Source: Vicinamibacterales bacterium (GTDB taxonomy: Bacteria; Acidobacteriota; Vicinamibacteria; Vicinamibacterales; 2-12-FULL-66-21). Taken from it: DNA of 64,000 nucleotides. The DNA lies in the NCBI GenBank assembly GCA_036496585.1, contig DASXLB010000037.1, positions 3,497 to 67,496 on the forward strand, given 5' to 3'. Below the pieces are notes generated by a model. That model was not told where the DNA came from. It did not search any database and saw only the letters and a program-made list of their open reading frames with translations. Below, one piece after another: positions 33,662-50,240 of this stretch; position 1 is the stretch's first letter, and every line of letters begins with the position of its first letter. The translations under genes were made by a program, and so were the position numbers.

Positions 33662-34741
33662 GTGGAATCGGCTGCTCTGTTCCGGCTGCTCGGCGACGAG
33701 GCGCGGCTGCGCATGCTGCGGCTGCTGGCAGCCGAGCAGTTGAACGTGTCGGAACTGACCGGCATCCTCGGCATTGCGCAGTCGGGCGTGTCGCGGCATC
33801 TGGGCCTGCTCAAGGATGCGGGCCTCGTCGAGGAGCGGCGCGAGGCGGGATTCACCTACTTCCGGCTGGCGCCGGCGCTGGTCGGCGGCGGCAACGGCTT
33901 CGGCCCGGTGTGGCCGATGCTGCGCGCGCACTTCGACATCGCCGCCGTGACGCCGCAAGGACGCGCTGACGCGGCGCGGCTCGAGGAAGTGCGGCGCGTC
34001 CGCCGGGAGGACTTCGACCAGCACGGCGCCGCTCCCGAGCACCGCCAGATCGTGCCGGGCCGCAGTTGGGCCGCGTGGGCGCGTGCGCTCGCGCACCTGC
34101 TGCCGCCGCTCGACGTCGCCGACCTCGGCTGTGGCGAGGGATATCTGGCGATCGAGGCGGCTCGGTTTGCGCGCACGGTGGTCGCCGTCGATCGATCCGA
34201 GGCCGTCCTGGCCCGCGCGAAGAAGCTCGCCGCCCAGCGCCTCGGCTCCGCGCCGGCATCCACGACCCCGACATCGCGAGCGAACGCCGTGAGCGAGCCA
34301 CGCGAACGGACCGAGCCGCCGAAGCGGCGAGCGAGAGAGCGTGTAGGGGAGTTCGAGGGGCGAAGCCCCTCGGTTATTCAGTGGAAGCGCGGCGAGCTGG
34401 ATCACCTGCCGCTGGACGACGCGAGCGTCGACGTCGCGCTCCTCTCCCAGGCGCTGCACCACGCCGCGCTTCCGGCCCGGGCCATCGCCGAGGCCGTGCG
34501 CATCGTCCGCCCAGGGGGGCGCGTGCTCGTCCTCGATCTGCGCCGCCACGAGGAGCACTGGGTCAAGGATCGGCTCGGCGACACCTGGCTCGGCTTCGAA
34601 GACGCCGAGTTGAAGCAATTACTCGAAGGCGCGGGACTGACCGATATCAAGCTCACCGTCGGCGCCCGCCGCCAGCGCGATCCTTTTACCGTCCTGATCG
34701 CGAGTGGCACCAGACCGCCAGAGTTGAAGAAGGCTCACTGA
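33662..34741 (+). CDS. sahR: ArsR-family HTH fused to SAM-binding methyltransferase domain (SahR-like), with in-frame repeat insertion
   Basis: [10 protein letters not shown]...[18 protein letters not shown]; VADLGCGEG; SQALHHA; immediately upstream of metH. Confidence 0.75.
34277..34373 (+). repeat. Palindromic repeat element inserted in frame in the SahR-like CDS
   Basis: Ends in hairpin CGAGGGGC-GAA-GCCCCTCG (34354-34372); shares blocks GAGCGAGCCA, GAAGCGG, GGGGAG, GGGGCGAAGCCCC with 48862-48960. Confidence 0.7.
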
Positions 34742-34742
34742 C

Positions 34743-38510
<3,768 letters not shown>

Positions 38511-47554: not shown

Positions 47555-48861
47555 TGCGAGCCTGGCGCCGCATCGCGATCGCCGTGGTCGTGCTCGGCAT
47601 TGCGGCGGCGGCCGTCCTCCTGGCCAAGGGCTCGCCGGTGCTGCCCGACACGCGCCCCGCGGTGCCGACGGCCAAGGTCGTACGCGGTCCGCTCAAGCTC
47701 ACCGTCTACGCAACCGGCGAACTTCGCGCCGGGCGGACGATGAACCTCGTGGCGCCGCCGGCGGGGGGCGCACTGCGTATCCTCAGGCTCGTGTCGACCG
47801 GCACGGCGGTGAAGAAGGGCGATTCGGTCATCGAATTCGATCCCTCCGACCAGCAGTACAACGTCGAGCAGGCGAAGTCGGACCTGGCCGAGGCCGAACA
47901 GTCGATCGTGAAGATGAAGGCCGACAACGCCGTGCAGACGTCACAGGACGCCCTCAACCTGCTGACCGCCCGCTACGACGTGCGCCGCGCCGAGATTGGT
48001 GTGCTCGCCAACGAGTTCGTCGGCGCCATCGAGGCGCAGAAGAACGCGCTGACCCTCGACGAGGCGAAACAGCATCTCAGCCAGCTCGAACGCGACGCCG
48101 CCGCCCGGGCCGCGACCAGCACCGCAGCGCTCGCGGTCGTCGACGAGCGCCGTCACAAGGCGGAGCTGGCGATGCAGCGGGCGCAGTCGATCATCGACAA
48201 TCTCGTCGTCAAGGCGCCGATCGACGGTGACGTCTCGGTCAAAGACAACCGCGACGGCCAGTATTTCGTGTTCAGCGGCATGGTCCTGCCGGAGTATCGC
48301 GAAGGGGATACCACCTACTCCGGCCGCAACATCGCCGATGTCATCGAGAGCGGCCGGATGGAGGGGCGCGCCAAGGTGACCGAGGTCGACCGCGACAACC
48401 TCCAGACCGGCCAGTCGGGCACGGTGCAGATCGATGCGCTGCCAGGGCGGACGTTCAGCGCGAAAGTGGGCCCGCTCAGCGCCAGCGCCTCGCGCGGCTC
48501 GTTCTTCGAAACGAGCGCGGTCCGCCAGTTCGACATCACCCTCGATCTCGATCGCCCCGATCCCGCCATGCGCGCCGGTTCGTCGCTCCGCGTCACCATC
48601 GACGGCCGCGAGATCCACGACGCGCTGCACCTGCCGCGCCAGGCCGTGTTCGAGAAGGCTGGCAGCAACTACGTTTTTCTGCAGACCGCCGCCGGGCACT
48701 TCGAGCGCCAGAACGTCAAGGTCGTCACGGCGACCGAGAGCCGCGCCGTCATCAACGGCCTGCACGAGGGGGACGTCATCGCGCTCGTCGACCCCGACGT
48801 CGCCACGTCGCGCAACAAGTCGTCCGGTGGTCCACTCTCGGGAGCCGGAGCGGCGAAGTGA
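47551..48861 (+). CDS. Periplasmic adaptor (membrane fusion protein) 3
   Basis: GTAVKKGDSVIEFD; VKAPIDG; VTEVDRDNLQTGQ; LPRQAVFEK. Confidence 0.9.
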   Translation: MMRAWRRIAIAVVVLGIAAAAVLLAKGSPVLPDTRPAVPTAKVVRGPLKLTVYATGELRAGRTMNLVAPPAGGALRILRLVSTGTAVKKGDSVIEFDPSDQQYNVEQAKSDLAEAEQSIVKMKADNAVQTSQDALNLLTARYDVRRAEIGVLANEFVGAIEAQKNALTLDEAKQHLSQLERDAAARAATSTAALAVVDERRHKAELAMQRAQSIIDNLVVKAPIDGDVSVKDNRDGQYFVFSGMVLPEYREGDTTYSGRNIADVIESGRMEGRAKVTEVDRDNLQTGQSGTVQIDALPGRTFSAKVGPLSASASRGSFFETSAVRQFDITLDLDRPDPAMRAGSSLRVTIDGREIHDALHLPRQAVFEKAGSNYVFLQTAAGHFERQNVKVVTATESRAVINGLHEGDVIALVDPDVATSRNKSSGGPLSGAGAAK

Positions 48862-48960
48862 ACGAGCGGCGCGAGCGAGCCAGGCACACGGAGTGGGCCG
48901 CGAAGCGGATACCCGCGGGCCCGTGTGCAGTGGGGAGCGGCGGGGCGAAGCCCCCCACCA
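48862..48960 (+). repeat. Intergenic palindromic repeat related to the element inside the SahR-like gene
   Basis: GAGCGAGCCA...GAAGCGG...GGGGAG...GGGGCGAAGCCCC in the same order as 34277-34373. Confidence 0.6.
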
Positions 48961-48965
48961 GCTAA

Positions 48966-50240
48966 ATGTCCGCGCGCGCCCACCTCTGGTCGTCGGACGT
49001 CCTGCCCGAGCTGCGTCTTGGCCTCGAGAATCTCCGCGCCCACAAGCTGCGCTCGATGCTGACGATGCTGGGGATGATCTTCGGCGTGGCGGCGGTGGTC
49101 GCGATGCTGTCGATCGGCGCCGGGGCGCAGCAGGAAGTGATGTCCTTCATCGAGCAGCTCGGGGTCCGCAATCTGATCGTCGAAGCACGCGAGGCCCCCG
49201 ATAACCAGACCCTGCAGAAGACTCGAAAGCTGTCGGCCGGCCTGTCGTTCCAGGATCTGCGGATCATCCAGTCGAACCTCGACGGCATCTCGGCGGCGAG
49301 CGCGCGGAAGCGGTTCACCCCGTCGAAGCTGGCGCCCAAGCCGCTCGCCGGCGATTCTCCTGCCGTCTACGGCGTCTCGCCGGACTACCAGGCCATCGCC
49401 AACCTGAAGGTCGCCTCGGGCCGCTTCTTCGTTGCGGCGGAGACGACGGCGGCGGCGCCCGTCGCCGTGCTCGGCGAGGCGGCAGCGGCATCGCTGTTCG
49501 GCACCGACGACCCGATCGGCAAGTACGTGAAGGTGAACGATCAGTGGTTTCGCGTCATCGGCATTGCCGGTCCGCAGCTCACCGTGCAGTCGGACGTCGC
49601 CGGCATCCCGGCGCAGGATCGCAACAATCTGATCTATGTCCCGCTCTATTCGTCGGTCTTCCGGCTCGAGGACGGCCAGAGCGCGCAGAAGGACGAGATC
49701 GACGGCATCTATCTGCAGATGCGGCCCGGCGCCGACGTGCCCGGCGCGGCGGCGATGCTGCGCGGCATCCTCGACGTCGCCCACCGCGGCGCCGGCGATT
49801 TCACCATCGTGTCCCCGGCGGAGCTGCTCGCCGAGCAGCGGCGCACGCAGCGCATCTTCGAGATGGTGATGGTGGCGATCGCCTCGATTTCGCTCCTGGT
49901 CGGGGGCATCGGCATCATGAACATCATGTTGGCCAGCGTGCTCGAACGGACCCGAGAGATCGGCGTGCGGCGCGCCATCGGCGCCCGTCAGAAGGACGTC
50001 GTGCGTCAGTTCCTGATCGAGACGACGATCATCTCGCTGACCGGGGGGGTCGCGGGCATTCTGCTCGGGGTCGGGCTGTCGCAGCTGATCGGCGTCCTCG
50101 CCGGCTGGTCGACGATCGTGACCACCGCCTCGATCGTGCTGGCATTTGGGGTCTCGGTCTTCATCGGCATCGTCTTTGGCCTGTATCCGGCCGTGCGAGC
50201 CTCCCGGCTGGACCCGGTCAAGGCCCTTCACTATGAGTGA
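48966..50240 (+). CDS. MacB/FtsX-family ABC permease without NBD
   Basis: LRSMLTMLGMIFGVAAVVAM, VGGIGIMNIMLASVLERTREIGVRRAIGA, YPAVRASRLDPV. Confidence 0.93.
   Translation: MSARAHLWSSDVLPELRLGLENLRAHKLRSMLTMLGMIFGVAAVVAMLSIGAGAQQEVMSFIEQLGVRNLIVEAREAPDNQTLQKTRKLSAGLSFQDLRIIQSNLDGISAASARKRFTPSKLAPKPLAGDSPAVYGVSPDYQAIANLKVASGRFFVAAETTAAAPVAVLGEAAAASLFGTDDPIGKYVKVNDQWFRVIGIAGPQLTVQSDVAGIPAQDRNNLIYVPLYSSVFRLEDGQSAQKDEIDGIYLQMRPGADVPGAAAMLRGILDVAHRGAGDFTIVSPAELLAEQRRTQRIFEMVMVAIASISLLVGGIGIMNIMLASVLERTREIGVRRAIGARQKDVVRQFLIETTIISLTGGVAGILLGVGLSQLIGVLAGWSTIVTTASIVLAFGVSVFIGIVFGLYPAVRASRLDPVKALHYE

Follow-up and report, generated by a model that had tools for sequence, protein, structure and literature searches.

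The gene for a SahR-like regulator at 33662-34741 (forward strand) of the window, which is the whole 64,000-nt stretch of DNA that was analyzed, carries an in-frame insertion whose core belongs to a family of palindromic repeats dispersed through the genome. Among orthologues that carry this insertion, the rate of change in the DNA of the core has been approximately one-tenth of that at silent sites in the surrounding gene. Judging from these sequence comparisons, we consider it reasonably probable that a repeat inserted once in the regulator gene, that the resulting allele spread by recombination, and that its core has been subject to selection at the level of the nucleic acid. In-frame insertion of repeats is already known to create new protein sequence, with Rickettsia providing the best-documented cases, and is extended here to free-living soil Acidobacteriota; what is new is the apparent nucleic acid-level constraint on a gene-internal copy. 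If this constraint holds up, the locus offers a natural test of repeat function, in which the dS of the host gene serves as an internal clock for constraint on the element.

The host regulator and its metH context

The regulator (359 residues) was delimited from the open reading frame (ORF) list and by Pfam, NCBIfam and its fold. Residues 12-57 constitute an ArsR/SmtB winged helix-turn-helix (HTH) domain (Pfam HTH_5; NCBIfam HTH_metalloreg), which is combined with a class I SAM-methyltransferase-fold domain (Pfam Methyltransf_11, 25 and 31), and more than 6800 homologues of the protein were found. Lying 1 nt past its stop codon and in the same orientation is the start of metH, the gene for cobalamin-dependent methionine synthase (34743-38510, forward strand), as identified from the ORF list and from the Pfam domains of the syntenic gene (S-methyl_trans, Pterin_bind, B12-binding and Met_synt_B12). 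The two genes probably form one transcript, and their pairing is also present in metagenomic relatives.

SahR is an S-adenosylhomocysteine-responsive regulator of the ArsR family, described from Proteobacteria, that controls SAM-cycle genes including metH, a core member of its regulon (PMC4239095). The present protein resembles SahR in the fusion of an ArsR HTH to a SAM-methyltransferase-like domain, as found by Pfam, NCBIfam and fold, and in its genomic link to SAM-cycle genes (metH, ahcY, metK, metF), here through the adjoining metH. On the basis of this two-domain architecture and metH adjacency the protein is referred to as SahR-like, its orthology, effector and operator being putative. 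It differs from SahR in that its host is an acidobacterium and in that it has a repeat-derived loop, which is not reported for SahR as described in the literature (PMC4239095). Because the residues of the SAM motif are invariant among insert carriers and purifying selection is evident outside the core (pN/pS of approximately 0.25-0.3), the host gene looks functional.

The initial annotation of this DNA had drawn attention to some 40 extra residues within the methyltransferase fold, and these proved to be 42 codons, which include the peptide that it quoted, at a position where insert-free orthologues read RRKLKN-IEW. The Pfam methyltransferase matches of the regulator accordingly fall in two pieces (approximately residues 152-192 and 233-289), separated by a gap around residues 193-233. 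In an AlphaFold model obtained with a 28-sequence alignment, pLDDT was below 50 for residues 197-234, between a confident helix (180-194) and a confident strand (239-243), and a short helix was predicted at residues 222-229. The rest of the methyltransferase fold was modeled with confidence and matched winged HTH-methyltransferases such as Rv2258c in Foldseek. The insert is thus predicted to be disordered and to form a loop from helix B to strand 3 that leaves the fold intact.

Anatomy of the insertion

The insertion occupies 34247-34372 (126 nt), and the codon count places it in frame. Its first part is a variable 5' arm (34247-34276, forward strand; 30 nt encoding 10 residues), as delimited in a codon alignment of carriers, and the remainder is the repeat core (34277-34372, forward strand; 96 nt encoding 32 residues), which is recognized by nhmmer (E 1.8e-22) and by a covariance model (CM; 109 bits). 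Among carriers the 5' arm differs in both length and sequence, and long-form intergenic copies have a similar 5' outer arm. Because the motif CCAC(C)GACCCC is common to this arm and to the 5' flank of a copy in another genus (L084 in genome G048), the whole 126 nt is probably one long-form unit.

The core begins with CGAGCG and ends with CCCCTCGGAT. Its small 5' hairpin (34280-34294, forward strand; helices 1 and 2) includes four pairs, 4-19, 5-18, 8-14 and 9-13, that are changed on both sides within the family. In the window copy this hairpin has an A-T covarying variant and reads AAC...GTG. This reading was considered as a marker unique to in-gene copies and was rejected, as it is a covarying variant of helix 2 that is found intergenically elsewhere; the A8/T14 variant is also present in other genomes. 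The central stem-loop (34299-34343, forward strand; helices 3 and 4) consists of a CACGC...GCGTG outer stem and a GCCG-CCGAAG-CGGC inner stem, and compensatory variants such as CACCGG/CCGGTG and CAGCGG/CCGCTG occur across copies. The strong terminal hairpin noted initially was recovered by folding as GAGGGGC-GAA-GCCCCTC at 34353-34373 (forward strand; (T)CGAGGGGC-GAA-GCCCCTCG(G)), and its helix 5 is 93% paired in the family. This 3' hairpin is the most conserved module and survives in the most reduced derivatives (L068, L070 and L071), the changes in L070 and L071 being G-U-compatible. Five nucleotides upstream of it lies a moderately conserved G(T/C)AG box, GTGTAGGGG or GTGCAGGGG, in which position 2 is T or C and the A is present in 21 of 29 aligned copies. 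The single-copy folding z-scores of the in-gene element (-1.3 and -1.5) were not significant, and an Rfam search of 34150-34450 returned no family match, with one chance-level match outside the element (E 5.4).

The repeat family in the genome

In the 5.3-Mb Vicinamibacterales genome, 53 interspersed copies were found by BLAST, 75 by iterated nhmmer and 77 by the covariance model. BLAST matches of the segment ranged from 80 to 90% identity (best match, E 1e-31 and 90%) and were all confined to the core; 90% was also the upper limit of identity between the in-gene copy and any paralogue in the genome. The likeness to an intergenic element in the window, also recorded in the initial annotation, was borne out by a real, diverged family member at 48860-48954 (forward strand), which scored 18.5 bits (E 8.5e-5 for a search of the window) using an HMM that was not trained on this copy, and 46 bits using the covariance model, whose training set included it. 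This copy shares the 5' arm and terminal hairpin with the family and has a different central stem. It occupies the interval from the stop codon (48859-48861) of a periplasmic-adaptor-like gene to the ATG of the next gene at 48967.

Three hairpins are common to the aligned copies: the small 5' hairpin, the long central stem-loop and the 3' hairpin TCCGAGGGGC-GAA-GCCCCTCGGA. Covariation was pronounced, with 12 of 27 pairs changed on both sides as compared to 2.5 +/- 1.3 in shuffles and 3-6 for slid partners, and 90% of the cells in the family alignment are paired. Because G-T mismatches (31) were not significantly more frequent than A-C mismatches (22) in intergenic copies, a strand-specific RNA signal was not seen for the family.

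The placement of copies relative to genes was determined by combining a crude gene caller based on GC3 with a check of each frame. Almost all copies are intergenic, in either orientation relative to the neighboring genes, and the end of the 3' hairpin is typically 2-20 nt from a gene boundary. A single copy of approximately 77, that in the regulator, is gene-internal, having coding signal on both sides in one frame, and one further coding copy forms the C-terminal tail of YbeY. The latter is a decayed copy outside the window (G000:C21:94389-94494; L094:1090-1195) that supplies the last ~36 codons and the stop region of the gene; TIGR00043 matches residues 53-160 of the protein, and the tail reads in the same frame as the regulator insert. 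Decayed copies are found at the same ybeY position in genomes G010 and G003, and decay of these orthologous copies downstream of ybeY precludes a clean comparison of rates. Other candidates for coding copies, close to ORF starts on contigs C4, C65, C8, C39 and C9 and in a 706-residue ORF on C81, were found by the frame check to be mis-called starts or antisense shadow ORFs and not insertions.

In six long-form copies the unit has an outer arm on the 5' side (AGGCTATCTCATAAATGCCGGTTGCAATCGCCGG) and a tail on the 3' side (GGATGAGACTAG). Long-form copies have a 6-bp TCTCAT/ATGAGA inverted match, several have CTAG at both borders, and a TCATAAA box is present. In a filled/empty comparison with a congener, which was available for one locus, the 3' tail of the element abuts and rewrites the stop codon of the neighboring gene, and alignment was not possible at the left border. 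At the L006 locus, the orthologous spacer of a congener lacks the copy. Some copies contain an extra palindromic module within the central loop (G000:C14:15407-15543, L082, L092, L093, and L069, the locus of P0005).

Phyletic range and mobilization

Of 24 genomes sampled from the same bacterial family, 22 were matched by the repeat model, at bit scores that reach the level seen in this genome; in other families of the order, the model matched 1 of 16 sampled genomes (G040). The three-hairpin repeat is apparently confined to one bacterial family and undescribed. A RAYT/Y1 transposase was considered as mobilizer and ruled out by its unrelated flanks and its distribution. The genome has one gene of this type (PF01797), with no repeat match at its locus, and genome G006 has at least 53 repeats and no homologue of the transposase. 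This only IS200-like Y1 transposase gene (G000:C15:119003-119923; L061:1234-2157) is flanked at 1150-1327 and 2174-2226 of L061 by inverted arrays of 11-nt units (GGGGTCAAACC / GGTCTGACCCC); the whole is a TIR-type tyrosine transposase unit unrelated to the three-hairpin repeat.

Probable origin and spread of the insert

A comparison of 149 regulator homologues (120 database proteins and 29 genome loci) distinguished three states of the loop. A short loop such as RRKLKN-IEW was found in 81, including all outgroup families and 9 of 10 congeners, the insert or a derivative in 14, and a different sequence at the same loop in 54. Because the short loop is present in most orthologues and in nearly all congeners, the ancestral state was a loop of the RRKLKN type. 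The central proposal of the initial annotation, that a mobile-type palindromic repeat is translated in frame in this loop, therefore stood: the genome has 53-77 copies of the repeat and most orthologues lack the insert, so that neither of the findings named in advance as fatal to it, a loop common to all orthologues or an absence of other DNA copies, was obtained.

The carriers share the insertion site, the frame, altered flanking codons (F/L-G-S) and one combination of subfamily variants at the DNA level, which argues for a single origin of the insert. They are nevertheless scattered on the gene tree, which was built without the loop columns and is of the "quick" kind, with many forks unresolved: 11 changes are needed to explain their distribution, with well-supported branches requiring no fewer than 5 of them. 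Monophyly of the carriers was rejected by the AU test (delta lnL 304, p 1e-63), the carrier group having been named after the tree was seen. A particularly close pair, L062 with the insert and L064 with the ancestral loop, is 90-97% identical across the gene and its upstream region, with a drop only at the loop. Scattered carriers together with a single origin imply short-patch recombination between lineages, along with losses.

Derivatives of the insert show in-frame deletions by which the peptide has lost between one quarter and over one half of its length (L070, L071 and L068), and P0020 retains just GCG AAC at the site, which looks like a deletion scar. In P0121, from a soil metagenome (L140:1-876), two cores that differ at 4 of 96 positions are arranged in tandem and in frame at a spacing of 99 nt (33 codons). 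P0005 (L069) has, in its in-gene copy, the extra central module that is also found in intergenic copies, amounting to 15 extra codons; the coding copy is thus likewise subject to nested insertion or exchange.

These observations suggest how the insert may have arisen. A non-autonomous, REP/MITE-like structured repeat would have landed once in the surface loop between helix B and strand 3 of the regulator; it lies in the sole frame that is stop-free through the whole unit and so gives a translated, Arg/Glu-rich disordered loop of approximately 42 residues. The distribution of the insert allele and the DNA comparisons suggest that it was then carried between related Vicinamibacterales lineages by homologous recombination in short patches, with later in-frame trimming or loss and one tandem duplication with a 99-nt period.

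The same helix B-strand 3 loop holds other inserts in P0023, P0027, P0053, L032 (G002) and L034 (G003), among them a tandem 14-residue repeat (LSASSVPSAAKQSS, 3-4 copies) and segments of the RRSPGEGG- or HRSPGDLSAGASAKAEGG-type. Either this loop is a hotspot or the other inserts are what is left of older insertions. For the insert of congener G002, the G002 genome yielded no more than one partial second copy, leaving a second repeat family unproven.

Conservation of the core and its explanation

Five full carriers were compared, together with two cores from the P0121 contig, giving seven in-gene cores on six stretches of DNA. Nucleotide identity among carriers was 93-97% in the core versus 76-82% in the rest of the gene, with pS of 0-0.08 versus 0.39-0.49 and pN of 0.04-0.07 versus 0.10-0.145. 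Identity at third positions, determined in 10-codon windows, reached 0.88-1.00 only in windows wholly within the core, as compared to 0.83 and 0.74 in those straddling its edges, 0.45-0.54 in the upstream flank and 0.63 in the downstream flank. One synonymous difference was present in 26 sites of the core, against an expected rate of 0.45 (p 4e-6). The 5' arm of the insert has diverged, with indels, unlike the core that it adjoins.

Pairwise differences among the seven in-gene cores are star-like (3-5 of 96), and the window copy differs from the family consensus at 8 positions. Substitutions in the core are mainly in hairpin loops. By hand count, 3 of 13 variable sites are at paired positions (p 0.016 if random), one of the three being G-U compatible, and stem-disrupting changes are found in two carriers, at pair 37-61 of the window copy and pair 91-103 of L069. 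Because the core and its hairpins are nearly constant while silent sites and the 5' arm diverge, we infer purifying selection on the nucleic acid. From the few sequences compared, the target of this selection would appear to be structure, a binding site, or both.

The core would thus not be a passenger, and selection would most likely act, within the sahR-metH transcription unit, on RNA or single-stranded DNA in folded form or on a site bound by protein. Constraint of this type would also account for the similarity of intergenic copies from different genera. A more far-reaching possibility, which we hold only tentatively, is that the repeat is a functional nucleic acid module throughout the family, either protein-binding or RNA-structural, and that the in-gene copy both encodes the loop and acts in cis on sahR-metH, with selection retaining the module and recombination transferring it between species.

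An alternative that we regard as rather unlikely is that the insert is a neutral passenger in a permissive loop, its cores being alike through recent spread of the allele or site-specific re-insertion and not through selection on the nucleic acid. The scattering of carriers on the gene tree and the rejection of their monophyly are in line with such spread, as is the nearly identical L062/L064 pair that differs just at the loop patch. The family also looks mobile, given the copy missing from the congener's spacer at the L006 locus; the in-gene subfamily variants AAC/GTG and TTC recur in intergenic copies of other genomes, and the P0005 module is shared with intergenic copies. However, recent spread does not readily account for the strong divergence, with indels, of the 5' arm of the same insertion. 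High identity ends exactly at the core borders in every carrier, which would require recombination breakpoints at the same two nucleotides each time. Moreover, this genome has no other copy above 90% identity to the one in the gene, variable sites avoid stems, and the deletion derivatives imply an age sufficient for decay.

Two further explanations of the frozen core are very improbable. In one, the Arg/Glu-rich peptide itself would have been exapted for a role in the regulator, such as contact with DNA or a partner or a fine adjustment of S-adenosylhomocysteine sensing. Several lineages have conserved the peptide well, the host gene remains under purifying selection, many database proteins have C-terminal tails in this frame, and the short helix predicted within the insert could be viewed in this light. 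Nevertheless, pN and pS of the core are similar, and selection on the peptide does not explain silent sites that are as frozen as replacement sites. In addition, the insert region is modeled as disordered, the in-frame deletions in L070, L071 and L068 shorten the peptide, P0020 has lost it, and most orthologues, close relatives included, are without it. In the other, which fares no better, ectopic gene conversion from intergenic copies would hold the in-gene copies near the family consensus, as might be expected from a consensus that is nearly identical across genera, from the finding that all six states separating the in-gene ancestor from it are common family polymorphisms, and from the hint of exchange with long-type copies given by the P0005 module, but in-gene copies are 3-5 of 96 apart whereas the window copy is at most 90% identical to paralogues in its own genome and 8 differences from consensus, conversion would bring in local variants instead of keeping a shared combination, and this genome has no donor with the in-gene combination, so that conversion from local copies cannot explain the match to orthologues.

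Relation to known repeat systems

The initial annotation had compared the insert with Rickettsia palindromic elements (RPE), which lie in frame within ORFs, in some families for roughly half of the copies (PMC10969869), and which end in the tetranucleotide CGTC (PMC3733652). Both are dispersed palindromic repeats of approximately 100-150 nt with an open frame and no known transposase, and both provide in-frame insertions in genes of the housekeeping type, with the peptide at a position compatible with the fold. The parallel therefore applies to the outcome, a new peptide in a surface loop with the frame intact, and fails for the frequency, as there are one internal copy and one C-terminal tail among 75-77 copies here versus nearly half in some RPE families. 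Furthermore, CGTC is absent from the ends of the aligned copies. The relationship proposed is one of analogy only; the host phylum differs and the repeat is confined to one family of Vicinamibacterales. To our knowledge, excess nucleotide-level conservation of an in-gene copy is not part of the description of RPE.

GTAG REPs may supply stop codons or lie inside genes (PMC3733652). The present repeat resembles them in its GC-rich stem-loops near gene ends, its tandem arrays and the G(T/C)AG box 5' of the terminal hairpin, and G-T pairs in its stems hint at an RNA role. In contrast, its unit is approximately 100 nt with three hairpins, versus 20-40 nt, and its GYAG box is moderately conserved and 5 nt from the stem. 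A REPtron arrangement is likewise not seen, since the single Y1 gene of the genome, with its unrelated 11-nt arrays, does not co-occur with the repeat.

MITEs such as ERIC, BOX and Nezha are small, non-autonomous, RNA-folding and gene-adjacent elements that occasionally give in-frame fusions (PMC10969869). The repeat shares these features, and its long-form copies have CTAG on both sides and the 6-bp inverted match. It differs from MITEs in that convincing long terminal inverted repeats were not seen, in that a target-site duplication was seen in few long-form copies only, and in that the in-gene site is without a YTAR target.

Consequences for assemblies and predicted proteomes

In practical terms, the repeat probably breaks assemblies, and it yields spurious N- and C-terminal extensions in predicted proteomes. 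Tandem arrays are found at contig ends of this genome (C59:161-667, C31:1-267, C23:805-1033 and C57:564-660 of G000), and so the family probably breaks assemblies and the copy numbers given above are lower bounds.

Pattern scans of genome and metagenome collections for more carriers returned one known carrier and many copies in 5' UTRs. In database proteins, the element frame occurs mostly in N- or C-terminal extensions, the loop of the SahR-like regulator being the one clear internal case. Several of the N-terminal extensions look like mis-called starts. Predicted proteins of related metagenomic bacteria that end with the element peptide include P0126, P0128, P0132, P0133, P0134, P0135 and P0137, of which P0128 represents a 34-member cluster of NADH dehydrogenase and P0133 is an endonuclease III; these C-terminal peptides are read-through tails formed where the element abuts or replaces a stop codon.
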